A stretch of DNA of 64,000 bases from Candidatus Poribacteria bacterium (lineage in GTDB: Bacteria > Poribacteria > WGA-4E > WGA-3G). The stretch's first letter is position 1. Each line of letters begins with the position of its first letter. The stretch is from the NCBI GenBank assembly GCA_963663765.2, contig CAXXUA010000005.1:512001-576000 (forward strand). The letters are read 5' to 3'. The notes under the pieces are model-generated. The model was not told the origin of the DNA. It saw only the letters and a list, made by a program, of their open reading frames with translations, and made no database searches. Of the stretch, positions 21,320-42,306 are shown piece after piece. A program made the position numbers and the translations under genes.

Positions 21320-21323
21320 TTTT

Positions 21324-22127
21324 ATGAATTCCAATGATTTACACATTGACGTAACTGACGAACAGGTGACTTTCTTCCAAGAAAATGGATACTTGAGCAT
21401 CCCGCGCATCACGACGGATAATGAAGTTGAATGGCTAAAAGGTATCTACGACAAACTCTTCAATGATCGCACGGGTGAAGAGCAAGGACGCTATTTTGAC
21501 CTTGCAGGTCCCCGCGCACATGCCGGTCAAGAAACACTGCCACAAGTATTAGGTCCAGAAGCACAATTCCCAGAACTCCGAGAGACAACCTATTTCAAAA
21601 ACGCACAACGACTTGCCGCAAAACTACTCGGAGAAGAACAGGAAAAGGTTGGTGGCGGCGGACACATGATACTCAAACCCGCACACTACGGGAACGAAAC
21701 GCCTTGGCATCAAGACGAAGCATATTGGAATCCCTCAGTCAGACCACACAGTTTAAGCGTGTGGCTGCCACTTGACAAAGCAACGCTTGAAAGTGGATGT
21801 CTACAGTTCATCCCGAAATCCCACAAAGGCGCCGTCCGTTGGCATCGCCACATAAACAACGACCCGCTTGTACACGGCTTAATTACCGATGATGTTGATC
21901 CGTCAGAAGCAGTCGCATGTCCAATACCCGCAGGCGGTGCAACGTTCCATCACTGCCGCACTTTACACTATTCCGAACCCAACAGCACCCCACAAGAACG
22001 GCGAGCATATATCCTTGTCTTCAGCGGTCCACACAAAAAATTGCACAAACCTGACCACCGTCCCTGGATAACAGAGGAACAGGAAGCACTCGCAAAACTA
22101 AAATCCTTAGCAGCAGATAGGGAATAG
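21324..22127 (+). CDS. Phytanoyl-CoA dioxygenase (PhyH) family protein
   Basis: TPWHQD (HxD), GCLQFIPKSH, distal His in TLHYS, followed by RRA. Confidence 0.92.
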   Translation: MNSNDLHIDVTDEQVTFFQENGYLSIPRITTDNEVEWLKGIYDKLFNDRTGEEQGRYFDLAGPRAHAGQETLPQVLGPEAQFPELRETTYFKNAQRLAAKLLGEEQEKVGGGGHMILKPAHYGNETPWHQDEAYWNPSVRPHSLSVWLPLDKATLESGCLQFIPKSHKGAVRWHRHINNDPLVHGLITDDVDPSEAVACPIPAGGATFHHCRTLHYSEPNSTPQERRAYILVFSGPHKKLHKPDHRPWITEEQEALAKLKSLAADRE

Positions 22128-22424
22128 TAATTAGAAGTAGTCGGCACACGCCGTGTGCCGTACACAAAAAAAGATGTCCAAGATTACAGACACAGCACAG
22201 AGAAACGAAAGGACAACCCATCCGCAGGTATCGCAGGATAAGGAAAATTAATGAAACTCGGTTTGCAATTGAAGGTGGACGATAAAAACACTGTCCCTAA
22301 CAATTGATTAAAACTATATATTAGGTTATAATATATTTAACTGAAGTTTATTTCAATTTATGTATGTATAGTCTATTTCTCTTGACCGCATTTGAAAAAT
22401 TGCTTACATATTGAGACTACTATC

Positions 22425-23585
22425 ATGGCTGAGTATGTTGATGGGATTAATCCTGAAATCCTCAAATGGGCGCGCGAACGTTCCGGTTATTCCTTGGATG
22501 CGGCTGCCAAAACTTTAAGTAAAGATATTTCATTCATCAATGAATGTGAGTCCGGCAATCTTGCACTGACTTATGCTCAACTTGAAACTTTAGCTGATAA
22601 GTACAAGCGTCCTGTAGCTATTTTCTTTTTTCCTGAACCGCCGGAAGAAGATAATATTGCTGAGAATCTTGCACTGCGAAGTTCTGACGTTGATCAATTA
22701 GAACCGAGAATCCATATTCTATTGCGACAAGCTTATGCACGACAACTTTCCTTGATGGAACTCAGCATGGGGAAAAATCCATCTGAAAATCAAATATTTA
22801 GAGACTTTCACGCCCAACTTAATGATTCACCTTTGGAATTAGCAAAACAGACTCGAGTGTATCTGAACATCAGTGTTGACCAACAAACAAATTGGAAAAA
22901 TTCCACAATAGCATTGGAAACTTGGCGGGAATGTATTCAAGAAAAAGGTATTTTCATTTTTAAAGAAGCATTTAAAAATAATTCTGTCGATGGATTTTGC
23001 CTTGTACATGATGTGTTTCCTGTAATCTATCTCAATAATAGTCGACCAGTAGTCCGACAAATTTTTACTTTGTTCCATGAATTAGCACACCTGCTACTTG
23101 GTAAAAACGGGATTACCCGTGACATTAACCCTACAGGTGAAAAAATTGAAACATTCTGTAACCAATTTGCTGCTGAATTTCTTGTGCCATCTGATGACTT
23201 AGAATCTCACCTTAAGTTTCCTGATTACGATGATAATACTGTAGAAAAATTGGCAAGTATTTATAAAGTTAGCCGTCCAGTCATTTTGTTAAAGTTAGTC
23301 AATAAGGGGATTCTTACGAATGAAATTTATCTGCAGAAAATAAAGGGGTGGACAGCATTATATGAATCACATAGAGAACAAAAAACCAGAGATGAATCCC
23401 CAGGCGGCGGAAACTATTACAATACTCAAACAGAATATTTAGGTCCGAGATATATGGAACTTGCTTTTAGCAAGTTTTACCAGGGGCAATGTACGATTGA
23501 ACAACTCTCAGAGCATCTAAACGTCAAGGTTAAGAATTTATCTGGGCTTGAAGACTGCCTGTTCAGAAAGGCAGTTCGTAAATGA
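22425..23585 (+). CDS. XRE-HTH + ImmA/IrrE zinc metallopeptidase
   Basis: INPEILKWARE HTH start; FTLFHELAH (HExxH); E..CNQFAAEFLVP. Confidence 0.9.
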   Translation: MAEYVDGINPEILKWARERSGYSLDAAAKTLSKDISFINECESGNLALTYAQLETLADKYKRPVAIFFFPEPPEEDNIAENLALRSSDVDQLEPRIHILLRQAYARQLSLMELSMGKNPSENQIFRDFHAQLNDSPLELAKQTRVYLNISVDQQTNWKNSTIALETWRECIQEKGIFIFKEAFKNNSVDGFCLVHDVFPVIYLNNSRPVVRQIFTLFHELAHLLLGKNGITRDINPTGEKIETFCNQFAAEFLVPSDDLESHLKFPDYDDNTVEKLASIYKVSRPVILLKLVNKGILTNEIYLQKIKGWTALYESHREQKTRDESPGGGNYYNTQTEYLGPRYMELAFSKFYQGQCTIEQLSEHLNVKVKNLSGLEDCLFRKAVRK

Positions 23586-24289
23586 TCTACGTATTTGACA
23601 CCAATAGTTTTAGTGTCCTTGGTAATTATTACCCTAACCAATTCCAAACTATTTGGCAATATTTACGAGTTGTGCTAAATAACTCTATGTTAATCATTGT
23701 TTCATTTCACATAAGGATGACGTTTTGCAGGTGACCTTCATAGCTTGAAACGATCTTCAGTCCAGTAGGGACGATATGTTTATAGAAAAATGTCATAATA
23801 CATCCTCTTTAGTCCCGTAGGGACGATATGTGTGCATTATAAACCTAATATATGTAATAACTTTGAAAACAATGGGTTAACTGGCACAAGTCGTAATATT
23901 TCGATCAAGCAATGAAAGATGGAAAGATTATCTCTGTAAAAGAAGTTGAAAGAGAACTACAACGGTACACGCGGTATCCTCATTTATCTGATTGGATAAA
24001 ACGGAATAAAAACATTTTTGTGAAACCGGGTACTGCAGAAACGCAATTTGTTAGGCAAATTTTCTTAGTGCCACATTTCCAAAACTTAGTAAATGAGAAA
24101 AATCGTTTAACTGGATACCCGTGTGCCGATCCATTCATCATTGCCTTAGCCAAAACAATAAACGGTTGTGTTGTCACTGAAGAAAAAGAGAAACCTAACG
24201 CTCCTAAAATACCAAACGTTTGTGACCATTTTAAAGTTCCATTTACTAACTTGCGGGGATTCATGGAAAGAGAAAAATGGAAATTCTAA
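23582..24289 (+). pseudogene. DUF4411-like PIN-domain protein interrupted by a MITE
   Basis: Removing the insert and one target-site copy restores MIYVFDTNSF...WQYFDQAMKDG...ADPFIIALA...KIPNVC; ATGA overlap with the upstream gene. Confidence 0.9.
23664..23895. mobile_element. MITE, about 230 bp
   Basis: Ends TACGAGTTGTGC / GCACAAGTCGTA; flanked by ATATT (or AATATTT) duplication; internal GTAGGGACGATATG repeats. Confidence 0.88.
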
Positions 24290-24443: not shown

Positions 24444-24696
24444 CCGCTTGTACACGGCTTAATTACCGATGATGTTGATCCGTCAGAAGCAGTCGCATGT
24501 CCAATACCCGCAAGCGGAGCAACGTTCCATCACTGCCGCACTTTACACTATTCCGCACCCAACAGCACCCCACAAGAACGGCGAGCATATATCCTTGTCT
24601 TCAGCGGTCCACACCAAAAATTGGACAAACCTGACCACCGTCCCTGGATAACAGAGGAACAGGAAGCACTCGCAAAACTAAAATCCTTAGCAGCAG
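24444..24696 (+). repeat. Stranded duplicate of the phyH 3' end
   Basis: 253 bp matching 21864-22116 with about 5 substitutions; ends in its own TAA. Confidence 0.95.
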
Positions 24697-24709
24697 GTAA
24701 AAATTAACA

Positions 24710-24752
24710 CAAAATCTCGCTGAATGCTATACACGCATTCAGCGAGATTTTG
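24710..24752. terminator. Hairpin, probable terminator after the phyH 3' remnant
   Basis: CAAAATCTCGCTGAATGC-N7-GCATTCAGCGAGATTTTG. Confidence 0.65.
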
Positions 24753-24873
24753 AATTTGTAATGTTTCAAATCGCTAAATCGCATTGATCTGCCCAGAAAC
24801 GGAACACAACCTAACAGGTCGTGCTACAACACCCTCGTTAGGTTCGGTTTCCTAACCAATACAGAATACCACA

Positions 24874-24988
24874 CGGGGAATGCTTTATAGCATTCATACC
24901 CGGGGAATGCTTTATAGCATTCATACCCGGGGAATGCTTTATAGCATTCATACCGTTGATTTCTTGATTTCTTGATTACTTGATTTGG
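24874..24988. repeat. 3 x 27-bp hairpin tandem repeat plus TTGATTTC tail
   Basis: CGGGGAATGCTTTATAGCATTCATACC three times; related copies near 34176, 46870 and 52735 (inverted). Confidence 0.9.
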
Positions 24989-25055
24989 CGTATTCTGCTT
25001 ACCCTATTGTCCAATTAATTCTAAAGTCTACTATAATAGTAAAGCAGGAACTGCA

Positions 25056-26522
25056 TCAATTGGCAAATAGATAATCGTTATTGATATTTTCTATTACCTC
25101 AAGGCATGTTTTTCCGTTAACTAACTGATGATAGTATTGTACGACACGTCTGCAAAAGTCTTGATTCTGGTTTAAGACGTTGTCGGGTGTAGGATCCTGT
25201 GGCGACCAAAGGGTTGTATTTGAAAAAATGATATCCATACGGTTTTGCACGTCTGTTATGCTCGCACCAAATGCACCGTTCAATGTGTCCTGTATTGTTC
25301 TGTCGGGGTCACGTATTTCGTATTGTGTTCTGGTGTCGGTTATGCCTTGGTAGTCGTCACCTGATATTGTGTGAGGTGTCAAAAAGCGTAGCACTGTCGC
25401 GAAGGAATAAGCAAACTCGGCTTTGAAGAGGTCTGTGCTTATATGATAGTTAGGTGATCGGACGATGTCTGCAGCACGTTCACGGAGTTTTACTGTCTCA
25501 ATGATGTTGATGCGTGCGTTATCATCTTTGATTCTCCGGATGCGTTCAATGAATTCCAAGGTATACGCTTCGGCACTTTTTCCGGTTATTGGAATGTCAG
25601 TCTCAACAATTTTGGCGTATCCTTTCATCAACCTTTCCAGATGTGGTGCGAATGTTGGATGTGATGCTGCCTCATTAACGTATTCAATACCAGAAAGCAT
25701 GCCTTTGTGTGTAATTCCCGGCACGTGTACGGAGTTCACCAAAAGCAGTTTCCAATCATGATAAGGTTCAATACTCTCCTGACTAACAACAACGCCATAG
25801 TCATCAAGTTTGCCAAATGGGACGCGCAGCCTGTTCTCTAAGTCTTCCAAAATTAGTGATGTCACAGGCATCTGTTCTGCATAAGTTATCAAAGCATCTG
25901 TGCTTTTGATCTGTGCTTGTGCTGCGTCTTTGATTTCACCTGGGACAGCGTGGACTTGCGGGACGAGTCGGTCACCCATTTCGTTGAGAAATCCAACATT
26001 TGTTTCTAACCATTTTGCGTGATCATTTGAACGTTTTGGATACTCGTTGATAAGAATGTCCCGAACAATGTCTCCGTTGTTTCGTAGATTATCTGTGTTT
26101 ATGACACAAAGGGATGCGTTTGTTCCGTGATGTGTATAGTAGCGATAGAGTGTTTCGTCTAACACGTCCATTGCGAGTTCACCTTTGGCTATTCCTGCCT
26201 CTGTTACGCCTATTAGAATAAGGTCTAACTCGTTTTTGGTTTTTGCGTAGAATTGTTCGCGTCCTTCTTCTGTTGAGAGTGTCGTTGCGCCGACAACGGA
26301 TGAAATCTGTTGGACGTCATAGATACCGCTATGGTCAAATGAAACGACGTGATATATCCCGTTCTGTTGATTGAATGCGTCTGCTTTCTCGGTGCCTCGG
26401 GGTTGTCCTATATATATGCCTCCCTCATAGAGATTGCGGTTGTTGAGAATGTCAACGAATTGATGTGTTAGCGCGCGTTGTAGACCACCTGCACCGATGG
26501 CAAGTATTTTGGTTGGTAGCAT
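25056..26522 (-). CDS. Mannitol dehydrogenase / tagaturonate reductase-like oxidoreductase
   Basis: IGAGGLQRA, TEAGI, DNLRNNG, MGDRLVP and KLLLVN motifs of the polyol-specific long-chain dehydrogenases. Confidence 0.75.
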   Translation of the reverse strand: MLPTKILAIGAGGLQRALTHQFVDILNNRNLYEGGIYIGQPRGTEKADAFNQQNGIYHVVSFDHSGIYDVQQISSVVGATTLSTEEGREQFYAKTKNELDLILIGVTEAGIAKGELAMDVLDETLYRYYTHHGTNASLCVINTDNLRNNGDIVRDILINEYPKRSNDHAKWLETNVGFLNEMGDRLVPQVHAVPGEIKDAAQAQIKSTDALITYAEQMPVTSLILEDLENRLRVPFGKLDDYGVVVSQESIEPYHDWKLLLVNSVHVPGITHKGMLSGIEYVNEAASHPTFAPHLERLMKGYAKIVETDIPITGKSAEAYTLEFIERIRRIKDDNARINIIETVKLRERAADIVRSPNYHISTDLFKAEFAYSFATVLRFLTPHTISGDDYQGITDTRTQYEIRDPDRTIQDTLNGAFGASITDVQNRMDIIFSNTTLWSPQDPTPDNVLNQNQDFCRRVVQYYHQLVNGKTCLEVIENINNDYLFAN

Positions 26523-26554
26523 GTGTTAGTTGTTCTCCTTTCAAAAGTTCGCTC

Positions 26555-27715
26555 CTACTGGAGGATTTCTTCATAGAGATTGAGATATGCATCTGCGATG
26601 TTTTTCCAGTCGTAGGGTTTGACTTTTTCGTTGTTTGCTTTTCCCATTTCAAGTCGTTTTTCTCCTGCGTTTATTAGTTTTATGAGACATTGTGCAAGTT
26701 CGTCAACATCGGCGGTGTTGAACAAGGCACCGTTAACACCGTCTTCCACCAATTCATCAATACCTTCCACACGGCTTGCAATGATGGGTAGACCTGTTCC
26801 CATTGCGTCTAAAACGACGAGGGGCATCCCTTCTGATAGTGATGGTAATATGAAAATGTCCGCTTCACGATACTTTTGCGGTAGTTCTTCGTATAGCACT
26901 GAGCCAGTGAAATGGATGTAAGAGTTGACATTGAGCTTTTTTGCTAATGCTGTAAGTTCTTCACTGTAGGGTCCGTCACCGACAATCTCTATCTCAAATT
27001 TGTGTTCAACCTTGTCAAGTATTTTCGGTAGTGCGCGAATGAGAAATTGAAATCCCTTACGTGGAATGAGCCTACCCACTGCAAGGCATCGGACTATCTG
27101 TGGATTTGCGGTACGTTGTGATGGATCATAACTTTTCCAATCTAAACCATCGGGAATGACATTGATGTGGACAGCATCTGTGAGATGTGCAAGGTCGCGT
27201 AGGTCGTCACTGCATGAAACGACTGCAGAGGCGTTGTCCCAAATTGCTCGGATCAACGGCTTTAGTAGTAGATATAACCAACGATAATAGGGAGGGTCGG
27301 GATCGGGTCGTGGTACGTCTCTACCACCTAAGAACACGGCATAAGGGATTTTCCTGAATTTCTGCAGAAGATATGCACCACCGCCTGCGGGGATACCGAA
27401 AAAGACCTGAACGATGTCTGGCTTGAACTGCTTTGCAAACCTCAACCCGTAAATACTGGAACTTATGGAGTATGTTAGCATTTCGTGAACTGCACAGACA
27501 TTTGGATTTTTTCGGAGTGCACTTACCCTATGCACATGAAATCCTTCAACTTCCTCTCTTTTTAAACAATCACGGTATTGCGATGTAATGAGATGCACTT
27601 TGTGACCTGCAGCAGCGAAATGTTTTCCAAGAAAATAACTTACTCTACCACCCCCTCCACCGATGGGAGGAAACTCGTGATTGAACATCAAAATTCTTCG
27701 TTGATGTGAAGCCAA
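26555..27715 (-). CDS. GT4 family glycosyltransferase
   Basis: FPPIGGG, GRLIPRKG and EGMPLVVLDAM motifs. Confidence 0.92.
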   Translation of the reverse strand: MASHQRRILMFNHEFPPIGGGGGRVSYFLGKHFAAAGHKVHLITSQYRDCLKREEVEGFHVHRVSALRKNPNVCAVHEMLTYSISSSIYGLRFAKQFKPDIVQVFFGIPAGGGAYLLQKFRKIPYAVFLGGRDVPRPDPDPPYYRWLYLLLKPLIRAIWDNASAVVSCSDDLRDLAHLTDAVHINVIPDGLDWKSYDPSQRTANPQIVRCLAVGRLIPRKGFQFLIRALPKILDKVEHKFEIEIVGDGPYSEELTALAKKLNVNSYIHFTGSVLYEELPQKYREADIFILPSLSEGMPLVVLDAMGTGLPIIASRVEGIDELVEDGVNGALFNTADVDELAQCLIKLINAGEKRLEMGKANNEKVKPYDWKNIADAYLNLYEEILQ

Positions 27716-28621
27716 TTAGTTACCTATTTTTCCTTGTTTCGTACGATTCTTTGCTAAATCCACCGCAAAATCTATCATAGTTTTAGCGATGTTAGTGCCG
27801 GTGACGGACTGCAGTTCCTCAAATCCTGGTGAGGTGTTGACTTCCAAGATGACGGGTCCGTTATTCGTTTGAAGTAGGTCTACGCCTGCGATGTCTAAAT
27901 TTAATGCTGCAGCTGCGGCTGCGGCGATACGGTTATATTCCTCTGTCAACTTTATTGCTTGTCCGTTAGCTCCTTGATGTATGTTTGCTCGGAATTCACC
28001 TGCGGTTGCACACCTTTTCATTGCTGCTATGACTTTGCCTCCAACGACGAGAATTCGGTAATCTACACCAGCTGCTTCTGCAATAAAGGATTGGATGATG
28101 TAATCTTTGTGAAGTTCGCACATTGCTTCTACAGTTGAGGCCAATGAGGTAGGTGTATCTAATAACATGACACCGATTCCATGTGTTCCGTAAAAGGGTT
28201 TTAGGATGAATGGATAATCGCCTATGTGAGTTACTGCGTCTTCTAAGAATGAGGCAGAACCGACGGTAAGACTGGGTGGAATAGGTAATCCGTGTTGTGC
28301 AAGGATACGTAGGGAACGGAACTTGTTTCGCGCGTTTGCTATGGCATTTGCAGAATTGACGACAGGGATACCGAGCCATTCAAAGTGTAGGACAACCTCT
28401 CCACCGTATCTTGCTGTTGCGTTGCTGAGGCGCGGGATTACGACATCAAAGTTTTCTGCATTTGTGCCGTCGTAGGTCATTCGGGGACCGGTTCCCCCGA
28501 TTTGCATGTAGAATCCGAATGGGTCTCTGACATGTACAGTGTGTCCTGCTTTTTCGGCAGCTTCAACGAGACTTCGGGTTGAGTGGTTATCGGGACCACG
28601 GGAAAGGATGGCAATGTTCAT
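27716..28621 (-). CDS. RimK-family alpha-L-glutamate ligase (ATP-grasp)
   Basis: MNIAILSR, GTHGIGV, FRANIHQG and LEVNTSPG motifs. Confidence 0.9.
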   Translation of the reverse strand: MNIAILSRGPDNHSTRSLVEAAEKAGHTVHVRDPFGFYMQIGGTGPRMTYDGTNAENFDVVIPRLSNATARYGGEVVLHFEWLGIPVVNSANAIANARNKFRSLRILAQHGLPIPPSLTVGSASFLEDAVTHIGDYPFILKPFYGTHGIGVMLLDTPTSLASTVEAMCELHKDYIIQSFIAEAAGVDYRILVVGGKVIAAMKRCATAGEFRANIHQGANGQAIKLTEEYNRIAAAAAAALNLDIAGVDLLQTNNGPVILEVNTSPGFEELQSVTGTNIAKTMIDFAVDLAKNRTKQGKIGN

Positions 28622-28896
28622 AGTCAAGATAGTTTTCAGTTGTCAGTTGTTAGTTATCAGCAACATCATAATGATTTAATCAGTAATTTGTTGCCAGAAT
28701 TGCTGATTACGCGAATTTCACGGACTATTCTTTTGTCTGAACAAGGATTTTCAGGATTTCCAGATTACCAGGATTTGACTCTTCCCCACTGTCATTGCAT
28801 TCTTAAAACCACTCATATTGCAGAATAATGTATGCTCATCGTTTTTCCAATCACGACGCGCTTTGTAAGTGCCCCATCGTTTTGGGTATGTCGCTG

Positions 28897-28960
28897 TCAA
28901 CTATTCTGGTACGTTTCTTTCAGGAAAACTTCTAATTCCTCAAAGGTATCAAATATCGGT
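28897..28960 (-). repeat. Stranded duplicate of the 3' end of the kinase/NDT gene
   Basis: Encodes IFDTFEELEVFLKETYQNS*, against IFDSFEELDDFLKETYQNRRD* at 30825-30895. Confidence 0.88.
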
Positions 28961-30762
28961 TAATTTGGATACAACCATATTTTGAGTGCCTTCTGTGCGA
29001 GTTCTTCCGCTCTCTTTTTAATAGCATTTTCGTTCCATTGCTTTGCATGGACGAGGCTTTTATTTAGGTGTAACGGACTCTCGCAAAATCCACCGTTTAT
29101 ACATTGTTTTTTGTTGAAAGGTAGATCGCTTAACGCCGGATTATCCCTTTTTCCGATAAGAGTAAGGTTGCCAATTGTATGAAGGTATTTTTCCTGAATC
29201 TCTTGCCAGTTTTCACCTAATTCCTGTTGCCATTCCTCGGGTAGATCAGAATTTTGCGGCATCACATGCTCAATCGTGCAGTTTGCAACGCTTATTGGTT
29301 CTCTGCGTTCTGAATTCTCAAGTTTACGCAGCAGATAATTACACCTGTTAAAATTATAAACATCTTTTAAGAGTAATGCTTGCTTAAATTCTCTGTCTGA
29401 AGGATAACGCCTTGTAGATATAAGTTGCAAGAATGCAGCCTTCACACTTTCAAGATATTTGTCTTTGTCTACTTTTGTCATCAGAGTCGCAAAAGTTGTG
29501 TTCAAGGTATTTGTCGGAATTCCGCATATAGAACGTCGAAAAACGTAACTTTCTACTAAGCAAAGGATTTTGATAAACTCTGGTTTTTGGATATGTTTCC
29601 GCGTATAGTCTTCATAGACTTCAATCAATAGTGGAAAGGCAACTGTAACATCAAGCGAATTGATATTCTCAAAGCAATCTTGAAGGCCAATGTCATCTTC
29701 CTGATCTAGTGCAATGCATACGTAGTGCCTTGAAAAACGGGAAATGTCCTTGATAATCGGTTCTATAGTTTCTAACGCTTCTGAATTTTTTCTTTCTTGA
29801 ATATAAACTTTGAAACGTTCGTAAACGCTATTAATCTTCGGAATCTGCCGCGTTTCTAACGTGAGATAATCCCTAATGAACGAGTCGAACCAGCCAGTGT
29901 ATTGATCTCCAAAACGCTGCTCCATAGGAAGCCAATATATTTCATATAGCTTGTTTTGGAAATCACGTTCTTGTCCCATAAGCACATAGTTGCGAATGAG
30001 ATCTGCTTGTGAAAGTTCAAGTCCTGTAGAATTGAGACTCTCAAAAATCAGTTGAGGATTATCGTCAGGGCGATCCAAAACGATATCTACTATTCTTAAT
30101 CTTTGAATTCCAATATACACTGCCTTAAGGTCTGCACTTTTAAGTTTTGCTTCAAAAAAACGATAGTTTTCCACTAACTGCGGAGCATTATTGGCGGGGA
30201 GTTCTCTATCTTCCAACAACTGAATCAATTTACCTTTATTATGATGGTTAGTAATTTGGAACCAGTTTACATCAATTCCATCCAACAGATGAATTAGGGA
30301 ATCCTTATCGTGCTGAGTGAGCAACTGCTTGTATCGCAACTCATCTGTTCTACGGACATTAAGGTAGTAGTCCGAAAGTTCTTCAGGTGTTATACCTATA
30401 TCAACATTCTGTCCTTCAACTGCTCTACTGAGTGCCGCAAGCAAAAGGGTTAAAGATGTTAACCTCTGTTGACCGTCAATAACATGCAGTTCGCGTACTC
30501 TTGAAGCGTTATTAACTTTTGGGTCAATGTAGACGATTGAACCGAGAAAATGGGATATGTTATTACTATTTTGTCCCAGACGTAGTACATCATCCCACAG
30601 TTTTTCGCAGTGGTGTTTTTTCCAACTGTACCTACGTTGGAAGATTGGTACAGAAAATTGCTTATTGCCATCTAATAATTGTAGAAAATCTGTATCATGT
30701 GCTTCCATAGATTGTATATTCCTCCATATCTGGTCAATATTAGATACACCATTTTCAGACAA
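28960..30762 (-). CDS. GmrSD-like type IV restriction nuclease (DUF262 + DUF1524)
   Basis: PIFQRRYSW, IDGQQR, IFESLNSTG, IEHVMPQ and IGNLTL motifs. Confidence 0.92.
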   Translation of the reverse strand: MSENGVSNIDQIWRNIQSMEAHDTDFLQLLDGNKQFSVPIFQRRYSWKKHHCEKLWDDVLRLGQNSNNISHFLGSIVYIDPKVNNASRVRELHVIDGQQRLTSLTLLLAALSRAVEGQNVDIGITPEELSDYYLNVRRTDELRYKQLLTQHDKDSLIHLLDGIDVNWFQITNHHNKGKLIQLLEDRELPANNAPQLVENYRFFEAKLKSADLKAVYIGIQRLRIVDIVLDRPDDNPQLIFESLNSTGLELSQADLIRNYVLMGQERDFQNKLYEIYWLPMEQRFGDQYTGWFDSFIRDYLTLETRQIPKINSVYERFKVYIQERKNSEALETIEPIIKDISRFSRHYVCIALDQEDDIGLQDCFENINSLDVTVAFPLLIEVYEDYTRKHIQKPEFIKILCLVESYVFRRSICGIPTNTLNTTFATLMTKVDKDKYLESVKAAFLQLISTRRYPSDREFKQALLLKDVYNFNRCNYLLRKLENSERREPISVANCTIEHVMPQNSDLPEEWQQELGENWQEIQEKYLHTIGNLTLIGKRDNPALSDLPFNKKQCINGGFCESPLHLNKSLVHAKQWNENAIKKRAEELAQKALKIWLYPN

Positions 30763-32319: not shown

Positions 32320-32360
32320 ATTATATAACAGTATAACTATAATGTCAAATAGATTAAATC

Positions 32361-32402: not shown

Positions 32403-32485
32403 GGGGGTGAAAGGATTCGACGGAGGACGAAAGCGTGGTTGCTTTCAATAACTTCCGGATGTGGGTTCAATTCCCACCACCTCCA
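32403..32485 (+). ncRNA. Miniature tmRNA-like RNA (tRNA-like domain only, no tag reading frame)
   Basis: GGGGGTG pairs with CACCTCC, giving G3:U70 and discriminator A; stemless D-loop AAAGGATTCGA; CGGAGG/CTTCCG helix; GAAAGC/GCTTTC hairpin; T-arm GTGGG-TTCAATT-CCCAC. Confidence 0.85.
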
Positions 32486-34149: not shown

Positions 34150-34343
34150 CAGAACTTACGCAAAAAAGGTAGGCGGTGAATGCCTAAATGGCATTCATAC
34201 CCGGGGAATGCCTAAATGGCATTCATACCGTTGATTTCTTGATTTGGTGCTTTGTAAGCGCGCTGAAAACCCATAAAAACGCTGACAATTGCATCATTTT
34301 CATCATAATTCTTGATTATATCAAGAAAACTGCGTAAGTCCTG
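34150..34343. mobile_element. MITE of the 32198 family carrying an inserted hairpin repeat
   Basis: CAGAACTTACGCA...TGCGTAAGTCCTG; extra ~70 bp of GAATGCC-TAAAT-GGCATTC units relative to the 32198 copy. Confidence 0.85.
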
Positions 34344-34413
34344 CCTTAAATTAACATGTATAGTTTTTGTGAATTTCTATACATGTCATGGAATATATGT
34401 ATATTTTTTGTAC

Positions 34414-35835
34414 CTGACATACTCCCCAAGCTAAAGCATGGGGGTTCTTAGTTCTTATATTGGAAACGGTTTGAGTTGTTTCCAAACGACTTTTCCTGCT
34501 TCCGTGTCTCGTGCCCTTTCCTGAACAGCGTTGGGTCTTATTTGCACTCCACAGGCGTGACTTTCGGTGTGTCCCACCGTAGTTGGTTTCAAGTTTATTG
34601 CAGCGTTGACATCTCTATCTATAGACATATCACATTGACTGCAGTGATACATTCTTTCTGAAAGTGTTAGGTCTTTCTTTTTGTGTCCACAACCGGAACA
34701 GGTTTTACTACTTGCAAAGAACATATCTGCTTCTTTGACAGGTATACCGCGCACTTCCGCTTTTGTCTTGAGTTTTAGCAGGAAACCGCCTAATGCTGTA
34801 TCTGACAATGCTTTTGCGAGGTTTCTGTTCTTCAGCATATTAGTAACCTTGAGTGTCTCAATACCGATCGCAGATGTGAGGTTGACAATCTCTGTAGTTG
34901 CTTTATGATGAGCATCGTTTCGGATACAAGCGATACGATAGTAGATACGTTCTAACTTGTGTTTTTGTTTGAACCAGTTGTTAGACTTGAAAACTTTTCT
35001 ACTTAATCTACGTTGTTCTCTTGCTAACTTCTTTTCATATCGTTTCAGGGGTCTTGGATTATCATATTTCGTGCCATCACTCAATGTGGCAAGTGTGTTT
35101 ATGCCTACATCTATACCAATCACAGGGTGCGTTGAGTTATCAACTGCTTCGGTGTCCTCTGTTTCTATGGTGATAGATACAAACCAACGATGTGCTGTCC
35201 TTGAGATCGTCACTTTCATAATCTTACCCACAAAACGCAATGATTCAAACATGCTAATCCAACCAATCTTAGGAAGTTTGATACGCTTACCTTCAACTTC
35301 TACAGATTGATTATTTGTGGTGAATGCGTCCTTTTTGCCACGCTTCTTGAACTTCGGAAATCTCGCACGCTTACCAACCCAATTCGCAAGCGCAGCAGAC
35401 AAGTTACCAAATATGCTTTTATTGGCTACAACCTGATCCATATCTTTAGTCCAAGCATGTGCTTTCTTAGCAATATTAAATCGAGTGTTTAACTTCGCAG
35501 CGGATAAGAACTCATCATTTGCCAATGCAGACTTGAAATCTGCTAATGCATGATTATATGCAAATCTCGCATAGCCACACTGTTGTGCAAACCATTTTCG
35601 TTGATTGTTATTTGGATTCAATGCAATCTTATGTGTTTTTAGCATGATCATATTCCAGTCCTATGAAGACGTCAGTTCCCTCTACTAAAGGTGTGTAGGT
35701 GTTAGTAGCACCTACACTGAACTGGTATAATGAGTATCTCATGTTTTAAACCAAAAATCAAGTTTTTTCTTGACACAAGCACTTAGCACGACTACATCCC
35801 ACTACCTAAAGGTAGGGGTTTTGTCGTGATTCTTG
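34414..35835 (-). mobile_element. IS200/IS605-family element with solo tnpB (IS1341-like)
   Basis: Subterminal hairpins CCCCAAGCTAAAGCATGGGG (about 34424) and CCCACTACCTAAAGGTAGGGG (about 35797); ends approximate. Confidence 0.8.
34455..35651 (-). CDS. tnpB: RNA-guided nuclease TnpB
   Basis: HTH_OrfB start; RuvC motifs GIDVG / IETL / DRDVNAA; CSGC...CSQC zinc finger. Confidence 0.95.
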   Translation of the reverse strand: MIMLKTHKIALNPNNNQRKWFAQQCGYARFAYNHALADFKSALANDEFLSAAKLNTRFNIAKKAHAWTKDMDQVVANKSIFGNLSAALANWVGKRARFPKFKKRGKKDAFTTNNQSVEVEGKRIKLPKIGWISMFESLRFVGKIMKVTISRTAHRWFVSITIETEDTEAVDNSTHPVIGIDVGINTLATLSDGTKYDNPRPLKRYEKKLAREQRRLSRKVFKSNNWFKQKHKLERIYYRIACIRNDAHHKATTEIVNLTSAIGIETLKVTNMLKNRNLAKALSDTALGGFLLKLKTKAEVRGIPVKEADMFFASSKTCSGCGHKKKDLTLSERMYHCSQCDMSIDRDVNAAINLKPTTVGHTESHACGVQIRPNAVQERARDTEAGKVVWKQLKPFPI

Positions 35836-35891: not shown

Positions 35892-36986
35892 CTACACATT
35901 TGAGAGCAAGTTCATAAGATTACTATTGATATAATAATATTCTCGTCCGATTTTCTGTCGTTCAAGCAATCCAAATCCTGTTATTTCGTTCAGGTATTTT
36001 GTCGCTGTAATGCGACTACACTGTAGTTCTGCTTCAACAATATTAATCTTGCAGTAAGGCCACTTGAAGAGTAGATCTACAAAACCTTCTCGTTCAATCG
36101 CTTTTGTTTTACCTTGTGCTTGTGTGATTACGTTGTCAATAAGTGTATTAATAGTTTCTATCGTGTCTGCGGTTTCTCGTGAAGTTTGTTCCACTGCTTG
36201 CAAAACGTAAAGTATCCACTGTTCCCATTTTCCTTCTTCTGTTACCTCACGGAGATAACGATAGTACTCTGAACGATTTTGGATAAAGAAACGACTGAGA
36301 TAGAGTATTGGAACATCAAGCAATCCCTGCTGCATCAGATATAGGATATTGAGTATACGTCCTGTCCGTCCGTTTCCATCCGAGAAAGGATGTATTGCTT
36401 CAAATTGATAATGCATGATAGCCATTTTAACAAGCGGTTGCAACCCATTGTCCTCGTTGATGAAGGGCTCAAGGTTGGTTAACAACCTAATGATATTTTC
36501 GTTTCCGGTTGGTGGTGTGTAGATGATCTCACTTGTGGTTGCGTTTTTGATTTTCACTTCATGCCTCCGGACATTCGTCTGAATGTCACGGATACGCGAA
36601 CATATTTGTTCAAGGAGTGGTGTATTGATAATACCACGGTTGCGCATACTATCCATGCCTGTCCATAAAGCCTCCCGGTACCGCAATACCTCTTTGGTAT
36701 GAGGGGAAGTTTGAATCTTATCAGAGGTCATAGCTCGGTACAGTTCATCATTTGTGGTGACGATGTTTTCGATTTCTGAACTCCTACGCGCCTCCTGAAG
36801 TGGTAATGTATGGACCAAAACTGATTCGTTTGGTAGTGTTCTTACCAAAGCATTTGCTTTTGCAAGCTCAGTCATTGAAGATATACATGCCTTAAGTATA
36901 TTACGTGATTCAAGTTCCGCTACGGGTGGAAGTAATGGAATGCCGTTCCACGGAATATCTCGATCAAACTGAACCTTTATTGTCAT
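35892..36986 (-). CDS. Fic family protein (N-terminal inhibitory helix, C-terminal HTH)
   Basis: SSEIEN inhibitory motif; HPFSDGNGRTGR catalytic loop. Confidence 0.93.
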   Translation of the reverse strand: MTIKVQFDRDIPWNGIPLLPPVAELESRNILKACISSMTELAKANALVRTLPNESVLVHTLPLQEARRSSEIENIVTTNDELYRAMTSDKIQTSPHTKEVLRYREALWTGMDSMRNRGIINTPLLEQICSRIRDIQTNVRRHEVKIKNATTSEIIYTPPTGNENIIRLLTNLEPFINEDNGLQPLVKMAIMHYQFEAIHPFSDGNGRTGRILNILYLMQQGLLDVPILYLSRFFIQNRSEYYRYLREVTEEGKWEQWILYVLQAVEQTSRETADTIETINTLIDNVITQAQGKTKAIEREGFVDLLFKWPYCKINIVEAELQCSRITATKYLNEITGFGLLERQKIGREYYYINSNLMNLLSNV

Positions 36987-37007
36987 ATTCCACTGCCTTG
37001 ATAACTA

Positions 37008-37235
37008 ATATGTATACTTTTTGCGGTTTTTTATACATATCATAACCGATATGTATACTTTTTATACATATCATAACCGATATGTATACTTTTTCGCATT
37101 TTTTATACATATCATAACCGATATGTATATTTTCTATACATATCATAACCGATATGTATACTTTTTCGCATTTTTTATCCATATCATGGACAACATGTAT
37201 ATTTTCTATAACAACATGTATATTTTCTATATATG
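37008..37235. repeat. Degenerate tandem array of TATACAT-N-ATGTATA palindromic units upstream of fic
   Basis: TATACATATCATAACCGATATGTATA occurs four times, plus degenerate copies. Confidence 0.9.
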
Positions 37236-37454: not shown

Positions 37455-37542
37455 ACAACCCACTGCTAAGTTGCGTGCGCCGCAATGTATAATTCTCCTA
37501 CCTTCATGATACGGCAAACGGTTGATGAGTTCATCGTTAAGG

Positions 37543-37625
37543 ACTTCGTCTTTAACGAGTAGCGCGACAATATCAAAAAGACCTGGTCCGAAAAAAGTCC
37601 CGTTAGTGAGATCCGCAACACCTGC
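37543..37625 (-). repeat. Degenerate stranded duplicate of the gltX 3' end
   Basis: Encodes QVLRISLTG/FFGPGLFDIVALLVKDEV (one frameshift), against [28 protein letters not shown] at 40883-40966. Confidence 0.85.
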
Positions 37626-37745
37626 CTTGCCGTAACTAGCTAGTGTGGATCAATAGTCAGAGTCATAGTACCCACTGCCTAAAGGCAGGGGCTTGTGTTT
37701 CCTTGCGGACAGCCGATCTAAGCTACGTCTTACGTCTGCTCCACT

Positions 37746-38858
37746 TTAGGCAGCTAAGCCTGCCTGTTTGATATTTATTGCGGCGTTTATGTCTCTATCG
37801 TGTTCGGTTTTGCACGTAGGACATGTCCAGTGTCTATCTGCAAGTGTTAGATTGCCGTTTTTGCGTCCACAGCTGCTACAAGGTTTTGTTGTGGAATCCC
37901 ATTGCCTAATTTGAACAAGTTTTTTATCATGTTTTGCACACTTGAATTCCAACAATTGAACAAACTGATAGAAAGCGAGATCACTCACTTTTCGTCCCCA
38001 GAGGCGTTTCATGCCGTCTATATTGAGGGTTTCAAAGCACAAGGTATCAAAATGTCTGCAAAGGTCTGTAGCAAGTTTCCATTGCCAATCTAACCTCTGT
38101 CTTGATACTTTCCTATATTCTCTTGACAATGCACGCTTAGCACCATACCAGTTATTAGAACCCTTGACTTTTCTACTAAAAGACTTGTTCAAAGTTCGCA
38201 ACTTATTCAGTGATTGTTTCAGATATTGTGGTGATTGTATTTTGTTTCCATCTGAGCTTGTGAGATATGTTTTCAATCCGAAATCAAAGCCAGCACTTTC
38301 ACCTGTCTTTGCTATGGGTTTCGGTGTGTCAACATTATCACAGGAAAAACATATCCAGTAATCGCCACACTTGTCACGCTTGATAGTAATTGTTTTGATA
38401 TCACCTGTTATTTCACGATGTTTATGAAAGGAAAACCACGTATCTATACAGTTGATCTTGATACGGTTCCCTTCAAGTTTATAACCTGCCTGTGTAAAGG
38501 TCATAGAGTTGTATTTGTGTTGGGGTTTGATTTTCGGTCTACCTACTTTGCGCGTTGTTTTGTCTGATACTCGTTCTTTGATATTCCGAAAGAACGCATC
38601 ATACGCTTTGCCCATACGCAGCACAACGTCTTGCACAACTTGACTCGGTAAGTCTGCCCAATGAGGCTTTGTTCGCTTTTTCAACTTCGCAACATGAGCA
38701 TTCATTCTATAGGCAGATATGTTTTTGCCATACATACGGTAATATCTACGCTGCAACCGCATAATATGCACATGAATCTGGTGCATATCGTCAAGCATAT
38801 TGCCTAACTTGATTGTGTTCTTTTGATTTTGTAGCTTGTATTTATAGGTCTTTTTCAT
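37746..38858 (-). CDS. tnpB: RNA-guided nuclease TnpB
   Basis: RuvC motifs GFDFG / FETL / DRDINAA; CSSC...CPTC zinc finger. Confidence 0.95.
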   Translation of the reverse strand: MKKTYKYKLQNQKNTIKLGNMLDDMHQIHVHIMRLQRRYYRMYGKNISAYRMNAHVAKLKKRTKPHWADLPSQVVQDVVLRMGKAYDAFFRNIKERVSDKTTRKVGRPKIKPQHKYNSMTFTQAGYKLEGNRIKINCIDTWFSFHKHREITGDIKTITIKRDKCGDYWICFSCDNVDTPKPIAKTGESAGFDFGLKTYLTSSDGNKIQSPQYLKQSLNKLRTLNKSFSRKVKGSNNWYGAKRALSREYRKVSRQRLDWQWKLATDLCRHFDTLCFETLNIDGMKRLWGRKVSDLAFYQFVQLLEFKCAKHDKKLVQIRQWDSTTKPCSSCGRKNGNLTLADRHWTCPTCKTEHDRDINAAINIKQAGLAA

Positions 38859-39274
38859 TGTCCGCTTTGACTTTCAATATAGTCTTTTATAACTTCAAGG
38901 GTTACACCACCACAAGAACTAACGAATTTTGAACGTGTCCATAAAGACGGCAAGCGACTTTTCAAACTCGGATATTCTTCACGTAGAACTTTTGACGTAT
39001 AAGCTTTGATTTTACCGATAACTTTATCAATAGAATCTGTTGGGGGTATTTCTATCAGTAAATGGACATGTTCAAGGTGCGTTTCAACTTCCCTGATATG
39101 ATACCTATATTCGTCCTGTTTTTCTTGTATAAGTTGTTTGAGTCTGCCTTGTATCTGTGCATCTAAAACTTTACGACGATACTTGGTACACCAAATTACG
39201 TGATATTGACAACTATAGATTGTCTTATTTGTTGTTCTATAATCACGTCTTTTATTTGATATTTTGAGTGGCAT
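38855..39274 (-). CDS. tnpA: Y1 (HUH) transposase TnpA
   Basis: YHVIWCTKYR, HVH (HUH), LWTRS and YIESQ motifs. Confidence 0.95.
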   Translation of the reverse strand: MPLKISNKRRDYRTTNKTIYSCQYHVIWCTKYRRKVLDAQIQGRLKQLIQEKQDEYRYHIREVETHLEHVHLLIEIPPTDSIDKVIGKIKAYTSKVLREEYPSLKSRLPSLWTRSKFVSSCGGVTLEVIKDYIESQSGQ

Positions 39275-39433
39275 AATATATAACCTTATTATATTAGTGT
39301 ATAGCATATTAAATCATATATTGATTAGATTGTCAAATATATTTTAGGTTAGTATATTAGCCATCTACATCCCACAAGCTAAAGCATGGGGATTTGACGG
39401 AATAGTGTTAACATCTCTTCCACAGGATAAGTT

Positions 39434-40600
39434 TTACTTGTCAACATTGAGATTCCACAAAAGCACTTTACCGTCCCATCCCGCACTTGCCAACATTGTT
39501 CCATTCGGACAGAATGCTACGCTATTGACACCATTCGTATGCCCAGTAAGTGTTTGTTTATGTTCATCTGTTTTAGTATCCCACAAACGGATAATACCGT
39601 CTAAATCCGCACTTGCAAGTATCTGCCCAATTGGACTGAAGACTATATCATAGACAGTATTATCATGTCCGTTAAGTGATCGTTTATGTTCAACTTTTTT
39701 TGGATTCCATAGTTGAATAGTTTTATCGGTTCCACCAACCGCCAACATTTTATTATCCGGACTGAAAGCAATTCTATAAGCGAATCTCTGTTTTGTGTCG
39801 ATTTTCTGTTTATATATACCTGACTTATTATTGCACAAAAAGATGTTGTGACCTCCGCTAATCGCAAGTATTTTGCCATTAGAACTGAATGTCAAGTCAA
39901 ACACAGAAAACGGGATTCTGAACCTACAAAGATCTGCTGATAGTTTACCAAATCCGAAAATACTATTCCGCAAACGGGACGGTATACTCCGGTAAGGTTC
40001 ACATTCTGTAATACTCCGTTTATGTTTACCCGTCTTAGCATCCCACAGATCGATAATGTAGAACCCATAGATATTTCTGAGTTCACTCAAACTGGCGAGT
40101 GTCTTTCCATTAGGATTGAACACAATACTTTTAACATAAAGTTCTCTTTTGTAAGTTTTTTTCTGTTTTTCCCATGTTGGTGTTGTGAGGGTTTTTTGTT
40201 TTTCCCAAGTTAATGTATTCCACAACTGGATATTCTGTCCATTTGCATAAGCAAACGTCTTGCCATCAGGACTAAACGCTACACTACCAATGTTTTTATC
40301 TTTTGTTGTGAGAGTGAATGGTTCTTGATAGGTTTGCGTTTCATAGCGCAGAATACCCATACGACCTGCCACTATCAGATAATTGCCATCCGGAGAATAT
40401 ACTACATTCAGTCCCACATTTTCAAGTGGACGGTATTCTCTGTAAGGCTCATGTACATTTAAAGTTCTGTAAAATGCAGCCTTTGATATGTTGTTAGTTG
40501 TTGTATCGTCTTTAGACTTAATCGCACAAGCGGCACAGACTAATATCGGTAATAGGATACAGGTGAGTATCCATTTGTAATTCAGAATGTAACGCACCAT
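39434..40600 (-). CDS. WD40-repeat protein, probably a lipoprotein
   Basis: Signal peptide with Cys; about 7 WD40 repeats. Confidence 0.88.
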   Translation of the reverse strand: MVRYILNYKWILTCILLPILVCAACAIKSKDDTTTNNISKAAFYRTLNVHEPYREYRPLENVGLNVVYSPDGNYLIVAGRMGILRYETQTYQEPFTLTTKDKNIGSVAFSPDGKTFAYANGQNIQLWNTLTWEKQKTLTTPTWEKQKKTYKRELYVKSIVFNPNGKTLASLSELRNIYGFYIIDLWDAKTGKHKRSITECEPYRSIPSRLRNSIFGFGKLSADLCRFRIPFSVFDLTFSSNGKILAISGGHNIFLCNNKSGIYKQKIDTKQRFAYRIAFSPDNKMLAVGGTDKTIQLWNPKKVEHKRSLNGHDNTVYDIVFSPIGQILASADLDGIIRLWDTKTDEHKQTLTGHTNGVNSVAFCPNGTMLASAGWDGKVLLWNLNVDK

Positions 40601-40845
40601 CTTTAGTCTCCTTGTGTGAATATGGGAGAGTTAATGTGAAGGAATTCACATTGAAGTGTCTTCTATTGATGACTATTGCTGAGATGTCTAATCTGTCTTT
40701 TCAAGATTGACTCTTGGTTTTTTCTTTGTATAGTATACCATGAAATGTTGGAATATTCAGAATTAAAATATGCTATTGAATACAACATATTCTTATACAA
40801 ATAATAGTTGGAATATGGTTTTTTCTACACGAAATGAATACGTTT

Positions 40846-42306
40846 TTATAGGCAAGGTATTGCCCTTTGAATCCGCTTCAAAACTTCGTCTTTACCGAGC
40901 AGCACGACAATATCAAAGAGACTCGGTCCGAACGATGTCCCCGTTAGTGCGATACGCAACGCCTGCATGGCTGCAACGCGTTTGATGTCGTTTTCGTCTG
41001 TGTATTTCCAAATAGCAGATTCAACGGTTTCAAGGTCAAATCCAGGGATTTTTTCTAAAACCTGTCCCAGATTTGTGAGGATCTCACAAGTTTTTTGCTT
41101 TTTCTCGTCCGAACTGCCCCACCATTTCTTGACTGCCTTTGAGTCATACTCAAAACCATCGGTAAAGAAATAACGAGTCTGAGGGATGATGTCTTGGAAT
41201 GTCGTTAGCCGTTCCCCGACTGCATTGACAATACGCTCCAACCAGTCACGTTCTTCCGTTGAATCCAATAAACCCTCTTCCTGCCAGAAAGGAATTACCG
41301 CATCTGTCCGTGTAGTTATATCAAGTTGATTAATATAATGGGAATTGAGCCACTCCAGTTTCTTAATATCAAACACGCTCCCGCTTTTTCCGACACGGGC
41401 AAGGTCAAACTTTTCTATCAGTTCATCAACAGAGAAAATTTCCTGTTTGTCGTCGTAGGACCAACCGAGTCTTGCAACGAAGTTTAGCATCGCTTCGGGG
41501 AGATAGCCTTGCTCACGGTAGCGGTTGACAGCGACAAGGTCACCGTGATGACGTTTGCTGAGTTTCCTACCAGAGTCGTCAAGCACTAATGGTATGTGTG
41601 CGAATTGGGGAAGTTTTAGATCCAGTGCGTTGGCAATAGCAATCTGTTTTGGTGTGTTGTTGAGGTGTTCAGTCCCACGGATGACATGGGTTATCTGCAT
41701 CTCTGCATCGTCAACAATAGAGGTAAGGTTGTAGTTCGGCATGCCGTTTGAACGGACAATCACCTCGTCCTCAAGGGTAGCGGAATCAATATTGCGTGAA
41801 CCAAGGATTAGATCGTCAACACGGATCGGTGTATCAGGCATCTTTATACGAACGGTGGGTTTTCTGCCTGCTGCCGTATAACGTTCAATGACTTCTGATG
41901 ATATGTGTCTGCATCTTCCATCGTAGGATCGTGTAGATTTTGCCTTACGAGATTCGGTGCGTATCTCTTCAATTTCTTTTTGTGTGCAGTAGCAGTGGTA
42001 GGCATTACCACTATCAAGTAATTGCGAGACGTACTTGTCATAGATATTTCTTCGTTCCGACTGGACATACTTCTCATCCCAATTGATACCTAACCACTTC
42101 AGGGCATCAAAAATCTCTTGCATAGACTCATCAGTGGAACGCGCCGTGTCGGTATCATCAATACGGAGGATGAATTCACCGTTGTTGTGTTTAGCAAACA
42201 GCCAGTTGAAAAGTGCTGTCCTCGCGCCACCGATATGTAAGAAACCGGTTGGTGAGGGTGCCATCCGTACCCTGATGTTGTCATATTCTGTTTTTATTTC
42301 GGTCAT
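40846..42306 (-). CDS. gltX: Glutamate--tRNA ligase
   Basis: [14 protein letters not shown] and KLSKR motifs; ATGA overlap with glnS. Confidence 0.97.

Follow-up and report, generated by a model that had tools for sequence, protein, structure and literature searches.

Stranded ends of housekeeping genes at the borders of integrase-less variable hot spots in Candidatus Poribacteria, and their possible origin by homology-anchored insertion

The DNA examined here is a window of 64,000 nt from the sponge symbiont Candidatus Poribacteria (assembly GCA_963663765.2, contig CAXXUA010000005.1, positions 512,001–576,000, + strand). In three cases within this window, an intact gene (phyH, KinNDT or gltX) is followed by cargo and then by a same-orientation, intergenic copy of the gene's own 3′ part. 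The reading favored here, with some reserve, is that such stranded gene ends mark the borders of variable hot spots that lack an integrase, and that they arose through homology-anchored insertion-duplication followed by shuffling mediated by the resulting repeats. KinNDT is the name used in this work for the AAA_17 plus nucleoside 2-deoxyribosyltransferase gene. A stranded copy is a displaced copy of a gene end lying beyond the cargo, called a tail when it derives from the 3′ end and a head when it derives from the 5′ end.

Direct repeats were collected by self-blastn of the window, and domains were assigned with Pfam on its 43 open reading frames (ORFs). Defence labels come from PADLOC, tRNA and tmRNA calls from ARAGORN, and the RNA family from Rfam. 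The relatives are those of a single scan with KinNDT, which gave 79 Poribacteria loci (labelled L001 onward) of up to 21 kb each, many of them in chromosome-level assemblies. Among the carriers of stranded copies, L005, L015, L028 and L029 are chromosome-level and L049 is a short-read metagenome-assembled genome (MAG).

The self-comparison of the window showed four direct repeats outside the WD40 paralogues, with a spacing of 1.9–3.3 kb. Three of them are gene-end repeats of 256, 58 and 95 nt, with E-values between 4e-9 and 9e-97 within the window. A first-pass annotation, made from the letters of the sequence alone, had described these three layouts, and they proved to be real. Its figures were close: the phyH repeat, given as 253 bp with 5 differences, measures 256 nt with 6, the KinNDT values of 58 and 8 are unchanged, and the 83 bp of gltX become 95 nt. 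Its remark that the intact and stranded copies encode different C-terminal tails also stands (DRE* and GKN* in phyH, QNRRD* and QNS* in KinNDT, and a frameshift in gltX).

In the relatives, the genes are ordered SppA, phyH, KinNDT, RimK, GT4 and ManDH on a single strand, and a phyH orthologue adjoins SppA in 61 loci. The distance between phyH and KinNDT, in the 61 loci holding both, is at most 350 nt in 45 cases, 351–1000 nt in three and 1.3–7.7 kb in 13. The respective distance between KinNDT and RimK (66 loci holding both) is at most 350 nt in 30 cases, 351–1000 nt in 20 and above 1 kb in 16. By these counts, both intervals are hot spots that vary across the phylum and are empty in many loci. 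The empty-site relatives that the first-pass annotation had proposed to look for are thus the 45 of 61 loci with a short phyH–KinNDT gap.

The filled hot spots yielded 118 ORFs of at least 80 aa, which were scanned with Pfam at E≤1e-5. They include toxin-antitoxin (TA) pairs of the Gp49/HI1420 type, ImmA-DUF4411, GmrSD, restriction-modification enzymes of type ISP and type III, methylases, and DUF2971, T5orf172 and TPR-FRG proteins, together with many ORFs that have no Pfam match. Nearly all of them (111/118) are placed on the strand of the flanking genes.

Tails or heads were detected in 17 of the 79 related loci; together with the three cases of the window, they show a conserved anchor beside an insert, with displaced resident sequence retained. 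Stranded phyH tails were found by blastn at the first hot spot of six loci (L001, L005, L015, L028, L029 and L049), and weak tblastn matches to the phyH tail occur in L014 and L016. Stranded KinNDT tails follow cargo in L018 and L063 (blastn) and in L020 (tblastn). The first-pass annotation had limited the pattern to 3′ ends of genes, and this limitation falls, since the same hot spot also holds stranded 5′ heads of KinNDT, upstream of the intact copy. There are 10 such copies in nine loci (L004, L005, L012, L020, L022, L028, L029, L032 and, twice, L031), and they span from about 15–30 nt upstream of KinNDT to positions +53 to +209 of the gene. Counting tails and heads together, stranded copies occur at nine of the 13 filled phyH–KinNDT sites.

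No stranded copies of SppA, RimK, GT4 or ManDH were found by blastn across the loci. A generic scan for flank duplications over 1.52 Mb (window and loci) gave true cases almost only at the hot-spot borders; short intergenic rows of the repetitive extragenic palindrome (REP) type lying just outside ORF ends were left out of its gene-end counts. Four tblastn matches were dropped: one in L021 as chance (32% identity, E 0.03), one in L022 on the reverse strand as irrelevant, and those of L040 and L045, which lie inside the GmrSD coding region.

The junctions of the stranded copies are variable. Tails of phyH start about 70, 80–87, 256 or 302 nt before the gene end, and those of KinNDT at −57 and −116. 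The KinNDT heads end at +53/61, +100–104, +107, +140 and +209, forming at least five junction classes, each with a different adjoining sequence. A single fixed att core is therefore not seen, neither in the tail starts (about −57, −70, −80/−87, −116, −256 and −302) nor in the head ends.

In agreement with the first-pass annotation, no integrase was found. Pfam detected no tyrosine or serine recombinase family in the 43 ORFs of the window, where the only related proteins are the Y1 TnpA of an IS200/IS605 element and two TnpB, and integrase, resolvase and transposase families are absent (0/118) from the hot-spot ORFs of the relatives at E≤1e-5. Pfam also found no IntI among the hot-spot ORFs beside the arrays, which are flanked by SppA-phyH and KinNDT. 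The possibility of attC-like repeat units was rejected, since the DNA folds of five units were no more stable than those of shuffled sequences (z-scores 0.27, 0.47, −0.36, −1.48 and 0.51). An island targeted to a tRNA or tmRNA was likewise rejected, as ARAGORN called neither in the window nor in the first 60 of the 79 loci.

The first case concerns phyH, a core gene of the phytanoyl-CoA dioxygenase family (21306–22127, +; PF05721, E 1e-34). It is followed by a RosmerTA-like pair (22392–24289, +), consisting of an ImmA/IrrE-type M78 peptidase with a helix-turn-helix domain (22392–23585, +; PADLOC RmrA, E 2e-22) and a PIN-like DUF4411 protein (23912–24289, +). Behind this pair lies the stranded phyH 3′ end (24444–24707, +) with its own ending, GKN and a stop, and directly after it a terminator-like palindrome (24710–24752). 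The repeat itself (21864–22119 and 24444–24699) covers 256 nt at 97.7% identity (E 9e-97), with six mismatches of which five are non-synonymous, and the C-termini are AADRE* in the intact and AAGKN* in the stranded copy. Native sequence was sought downstream of the stranded copy, and the region consists of dispersed REP-like repeats.

The closest comparison is with L001, whose KinNDT protein is 98% identical to that of the window. ImmA-DUF4411 occupies the same place there at 88–92% nucleotide identity, and the cassette is collinear with L001 2356–4049 except for window positions 23665–23894. The 256-nt repeat is absent from L001, which carries instead an HI1420 remnant and a short stranded tail. 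In the 19 nt that follow the shared GCAGCAG of the window's stranded copy, 15 positions match the short tail of L001 and 7 match the window's own intact phyH. Because its right end matches the L001 short tail and not the end of the window's phyH, the 256-nt copy seems to have formed recently, when a short tail of greater age was extended to the left; it does not look like a by-product of the first arrival of the cassette. Such an extension would need homology at one end and, at 24443/24444, an illegitimate join. The two window copies are 2.3% apart and both are about 7% from L001; each carries three derived changes from an L001-like ancestor.

The DUF4411 gene, a putative toxin gene, is broken in the window about 80 nt from its start, compared with L001, by the insertion of about 230 nt at 23665–23894. 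This insertion holds REP-like repeats present also at 46200–46383, and the ORF left is of 125 aa in the window versus 156 aa in L001.

In the second case, the Poribacteria core gene KinNDT (30825–31862, −; 259 relatives, 79 loci) is accompanied by a GmrSD-type type IV restriction enzyme (28960–30762, −; PF03235/PF07510; PADLOC Orf5/HEC-06/mREase_IV). The stranded KinNDT 3′ end (28897–28959, −) encodes IFDTFEELEVFLKETYQNS* and starts at the base right after the GmrSD stop codon. The repeat (28904–28960 and 30838–30895) has 58 nt, 86.2% identity, eight differences and an E-value of 4e-9, and the C-termini are QNRRD* and QNS*. The junction between the GmrSD end and the tail is identical in the window, L018 and L020, and the GmrSD proteins of the three are only 57–66% identical. 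Since the junction is common to all three, case 2 goes back to one old event, whose product, cassette plus tail, was then inherited or transferred as a unit. GmrSD alleles at the site are 57–77% identical even where KinNDT is 95–98% identical, a divergence which indicates exchange or rapid turnover.

In two further loci, about 11 nt after the GmrSD stop (L065, ~12809–12825; L066, ~8740–8756) resemble the last KinNDT codons (TYK). This stretch may be a vestigial tail with a different boundary, or it may be a chance resemblance.

The third case concerns gltX, the glutamate-tRNA ligase gene (40846–42333, −), with glnS beside it on the same strand. The cargo is a WD40-repeat protein of 388 aa (39434–40600, −), and the stranded sequence is a frameshifted, internal piece of the gltX C-terminal region (37543–37636, −). 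The repeat (37543–37636 and 40883–40977) has 95 nt with 82.1% identity, one 1-nt indel and an E-value of 3e-17. The similarity of the fragment to gltX ends with DEVL, some 11 codons short of the stop, so that the last ~11 codons are missing, and the gltX C-terminus was of the intact type in all 60 relatives inspected, out of 120 listed.

An IS200/IS605-family insertion sequence (IS) is located between the WD40 gene and the fragment (37661–39411, −; 75% identity over 1769 nt to a copy in L044). It encodes TnpB (37746–38858, −) and the Y1 TnpA (38855–39307, −), and it has subterminal hairpins at 37665–37699 and 39365–39399. The element is a later insertion, the original cargo being the single WD40 gene, and before its arrival the gltX piece lay ~46 nt beyond the WD40 stop. 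It was considered as the cause of the gltX repeat and rejected, because the piece ends at 37636, outside the element. By its sequence, case 3 appears old and decayed, and the region downstream of gltX is probably a further integrase-less hot spot.

The phyH tails of the relatives show how such copies are arranged in larger islands. In the aligned copies a unit can be recognised that comprises the final ~80 nt of phyH with the stop codon and as many as ~35 nt of the sequence behind. These units bound cassettes in arrays, and tandem cargo blocks are present in L005, L029 and L001. The L005 array reads tail, TA, tail, 164-aa gene, tail, TA, tail, and that of L029 reads tail, 164-aa gene, tail, TA, tail, restriction enzyme; the cassette order is therefore permuted between genomes.

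The stranded tails are mosaic. Over the first ~15 nt they have a foreign allele of the PAHRP type, the resident genes being of the PAERP, PIERP or PADRP variant, and the middle of the tail follows the resident variant (WIKEE in L005, WQTEE in L015 and L028). The first stranded tail of L005 is even identical to the intact tail over 69 nt. Judged from these alignments, the mosaics indicate recombination or conversion between copies within a genome. Foreign alleles are found elsewhere as well. The stranded head of L020 is 75% identical to its own gene and 83% to that of L005, and L049 has a fused stranded piece in which the SppA head is 82% and the phyH tail 98% identical to the resident genes. 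The claim of the first-pass annotation that the DNA came from relatives is thus supported for the L020 head, the L049 SppA piece and the PAHRP-type tails, where the incoming DNA stems from another lineage.

The favored insertion-duplication could be pictured as follows. Cargo cassettes, mostly of defence or TA genes, would be brought in on DNA stemming from the corresponding hot spot in a related bacterium, the incoming piece consisting of cargo and part of a conserved flanking gene. One side would pair by homology within the flanking gene and the other would be joined non-homologously, which is homology-facilitated illegitimate recombination. Alternatively, the piece would be circularised first and then enter by a single crossover of the Campbell type. 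By either route the gene would remain intact next to the cargo, and a copy of its end, or of the head of the gene downstream, would be displaced; the two routes give the same product and are inseparable with these data. The repeats would later recombine, so that cassettes are duplicated, reordered, converted and deleted, and whole cassette-plus-tail units would be exchanged among lineages through ordinary homologous recombination of the flanks. The route of DNA uptake, the involvement of RecA and any circular intermediate are inferred. Insertion-duplication is favored because the junctions are variable, both tails and heads occur, alleles are foreign, tails are mosaic and no recombinase lies nearby. 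The tie between insertions and homology with the flanking core gene, which was part of the first-pass annotation, is supported.

The further proposal of that annotation, three recent and independent RecA-type Campbell acquisitions, is not sustained. The GmrSD junction is common to the window and two other species (L018 and L020), L001 shares the ImmA-DUF4411 cassette and lacks the long repeat, the 256-nt copy appears to be a secondary extension, and the longest exact runs between copies, 72 nt in case 1, fall to only 15 nt in case 2 and 13 nt in case 3, at present too short for RecA.

Several observations weigh against insertion-duplication itself. The runs of 15 and 13 nt make cases 2 and 3 poor RecA substrates unless the divergence came later, and the same applies to several stranded copies that are 70–80% identical to the resident gene; an excerpt of PMC2884548 gives about 30 bp as the RecA pairing threshold. 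No microhomology was evident by eye at the window junctions, where old junctions may have drifted. No tail or head was found in four of the 13 filled phyH–KinNDT sites (L003, L009, L011 and L025), and comparison with L005 shows that deletions took out the tails of L003 and L011. Five GmrSD-bearing loci that were examined in the more distant clade (L040, L053, L065, L066 and L071) have no clear stranded tail.

In case 2, the native KinNDT tail was not settled by identity to relatives or by sliding comparison with L001 and L002. The test of which tail is ancestral, suggested in the first-pass annotation, was run and was not decisive: both window tails are about equally far from that of L001 (48/57 and 48/58 matches), and the identity drop in the intact tail is not sharp (51/60, versus 52–60/60 in other 60-nt windows). 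Lastly, the tail starts of two unrelated cassettes, TA and the 164-aa gene, differ by no more than about 5 nt, and in L001 a third tail (str2) begins about 12 nt farther inward. Such near-equal starts could reflect a fixed recombination point; the alternative is common descent of one tail, as suggested by the shared CGCGCAC allele.

An extension of insertion-duplication, possible and at the same time doubtful, is an integrase-free 'pseudo-integron' in which the ends of housekeeping genes serve as portable recombination sites. Cargo enclosed by two copies would be looped out by the host's homologous recombination and move to other cells as a fragment or small circle, which would then enter the corresponding gene end of a different lineage. 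If true, this would make defence and TA cassettes mobile across the phylum without a dedicated mobile-element enzyme.

Site-specific accretion by a recombinase acting in trans is a rather unlikely explanation of the same arrays. The cassettes would then be decayed or minimal elements (cis-mobilizable or Xer-dependent) whose att sites overlap the gene end, with serial insertion at an att copy that restores the target gene. The co-oriented cassettes standing in tandem, separated by the same gene end and permuted in order, fit this explanation, as does the nearly equal left tail boundary of the TA and 164-aa cassettes. A like architecture is described, in the portions of these sources that were consulted, for accretion of cis-mobilizable elements (CIMEs) and integrative mobilizable elements (IMEs) (PMC5704250) and for tycheposon islands (bioRxiv 10.1101/2020.12.28.424599). 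On the contrary, the at least 11 junction classes in the phyH tail, the KinNDT tail and the KinNDT head would call for many specificities, and neither the window nor the 118 hot-spot ORFs hold an integrase. The homology left of any core is long (256 and 290 nt), a length that an att mechanism could do without, and the tail units do not fold into attC-like hairpins.

A purely internal origin has a still smaller probability. According to it, segmental or tandem duplication over a gene end and its neighbor was followed by decay through deletion, the cargo being independent and horizontal transfer playing no part. Consistent with such an origin, L005 has a 936-nt duplication of tail and TA cassette at 97.7% identity, the three derived changes in each 256-nt copy of the window are as expected after duplication within a genome, and the stranded piece of L049 can be read as a deletion derivative of a second SppA-phyH copy. 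Nevertheless, stranded copies are often foreign alleles (the L020 head, the L049 SppA head and the PAHRP tails), the window lacks the predicted order of tail, cargo, tail, cargo, and the duplications are restricted to the borders of the hot spots.

An assembly artefact, conceivable for case 1 only as the end-to-end joining of strain haplotypes with and without the cassette, is very improbable: the copies do differ at the level of strain variation in an uncultured organism and the short-read MAG L049 has a similar 98% repeat, but the window sits in a 1.82-Mb contig, the stranded copy has its own terminator-like palindrome and, at its end, an older and distinct type of tail that occurs also in L001, the same architecture occurs at lower identity in chromosome-level assemblies, and cases 2 and 3 are far too diverged for haplotypes.

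Regarding the layout of the window, SppA (19427–21319, +; Pfam and ORF listing) precedes phyH, and the core block of mannitol-DH-like, GT4 and RimK genes (25056–28627, −) was assigned by Pfam and synteny. Compared with the relatives, the KinNDT-GmrSD-RimK-GT4-ManDH block is inverted in relation to SppA-phyH; phyH and KinNDT are co-oriented neighbors in 61/61 related loci holding both. One inversion breakpoint is placed just 3′ of the stranded phyH copy, between the 24710–24977 region and 25056, in REP-rich sequence, and the window intervals associated with the inversion are 24700–25055 and about 31863–32200. gltX and glnS are never found within 10 kb of the KinNDT block in the relatives.

The fourth direct repeat (32226–32335 and 34249–34362; 114 nt, 85% identity) flanks a gene for a pyridoxal phosphate (PLP)-dependent decarboxylase (32467–34137, −). 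It was rejected as a stranded core gene end, since neither at the protein nor at the DNA level does it match a gene end of the 79 loci. Its upstream copy is located ~90 nt beyond the 3′ end of a TnpB gene without tnpA (34455–35651, −). The 3′ end of the decarboxylase gene is overlapped, on the opposite strand, by a tmRNA-like element of 86 nt (32403–32488, +; Rfam tmRNA, 63 bits with a gathering score of 47), which lies at none of the three gene-end repeats. Only its 5′ and 3′ tRNA-like parts match, 23 nt replacing the middle of ~310 nt; the element was not found in the 79 related loci and ARAGORN calls no tmRNA or tRNA in the window. A remnant of ssrA after deletion is one possible explanation, an RNA with a tRNA-like domain only another.

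Palindromic REP-like units of ~27 nt (GAATGC...GCATTC hairpin) occur at 24872–24977, 34174–34264, 46866–46923 and 52718–52830, and are also scattered in the related loci, often just 3′ of genes. Upstream of the gene for a Fic protein (35892–36986, −; PADLOC SoFic) there is an AT-rich array (36993–37216) of tandem 31/41-nt units, which contain palindromes, and a single stretch related to it (34341–34421) lies downstream of the tnpA-less TnpB gene. Perfect tandem 32-nt units (45879–46000) are found inside a 119-aa ORF beside a Dam-type methylase gene. A second defence-like cluster (4427–9779) includes a C-5 cytosine methylase (8646–9779), a 722-aa protein with two HATPase_c domains (6460–8625) and two ORFs without Pfam match. 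In a distant clade (L034, L039, L041, L056 and L064), a sequence of 80–100 nt upstream of KinNDT recurs at the start of GT4 and may be a shared regulatory or repeat element.

To our knowledge, many bacterial transfer hot spots lack a recognisable mobile element, and the entry of genes is there usually inferred only from conserved flanks. The flank duplications of this work, tails as well as heads, return at the same two sites, where they would form a physical footprint left by one-sided insertion anchored in homology. If general, the footprint would serve as a simple sequence test for integrase-free acquisition, would allow successive insertions in an island to be ordered, and would be indirect evidence that these symbionts take up and recombine the DNA of relatives. 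Poribacteria, an uncultured and host-associated phylum, are described in PMC5649159 and PMC5099237 as heavily loaded with defence genes. A limited search of the literature found no description of this pattern in Poribacteria, and one may be in print elsewhere.

Integron cassette arrays and clusters of attC sites lacking the integrase (CALINs) hold short, co-oriented, often single-gene cassettes, TA pairs included, around a repeated unit of ~100 nt. The arrays described here resemble them in having short co-oriented cassettes with TA pairs between repeated units; the repeated unit is, however, the end of a protein-coding gene and not an attC hairpin, and no IntI was found. A comparison with integrons is drawn in PMC5361080 as well. 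In CIME/IME accretion at the 3′ end of a target, as far as the consulted part of PMC5704250 describes it, tandem cargo blocks are split by copies of the target end, as they are here. CIMEs have defined attL and attR sites and use the integrase of a related element, whereas the present junctions are variable, comprise tails and heads and have no integrase nearby.

The tycheposon islands of Prochlorococcus share with the present hot spots, according to an excerpt of bioRxiv 10.1101/2020.12.28.424599, the fixed sites, the serial insertions, the partial copies of the target, the scattered integrase-less remnants and a cargo of defence or niche genes. Tycheposons, in the same excerpt, target tRNA and tmRNA genes and have active elements with tyrosine recombinases; in the present loci, no tRNA or tmRNA gene was detected among the first 60 of 79, and no recombinase among the hot-spot ORFs.

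By analogy, the nearest published model is displacement at rhs and type VI secretion system (T6SS) effector-immunity loci, on which Jackson et al. 2009 is reportedly a reference. Homology-facilitated illegitimate recombination, described for naturally transformable bacteria in an excerpt of PMC2884548, has been proposed for the displaced effectors and orphan immunity gene arrays of Vibrio T6SS clusters, and strings of orphaned 3′ regions have been noted for rhs loci, both in the consulted passages of Kirchberger et al. 2017 (PMC5361080). As in the hot spots described here, a conserved anchor receives new DNA and the old downstream parts are kept as orphans, in arrays and without an integrase. 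In the rhs and T6SS loci, what is displaced at the 3′ end is a variable toxin domain, and its immunity gene stays with it. In the Poribacteria, on the other hand, the targets are housekeeping genes (phyH, KinNDT and gltX) whose two ends encode nearly the same peptide, the cargo between these ends is unrelated defence or TA genes, and the 5′ heads of the downstream gene are duplicated as well.

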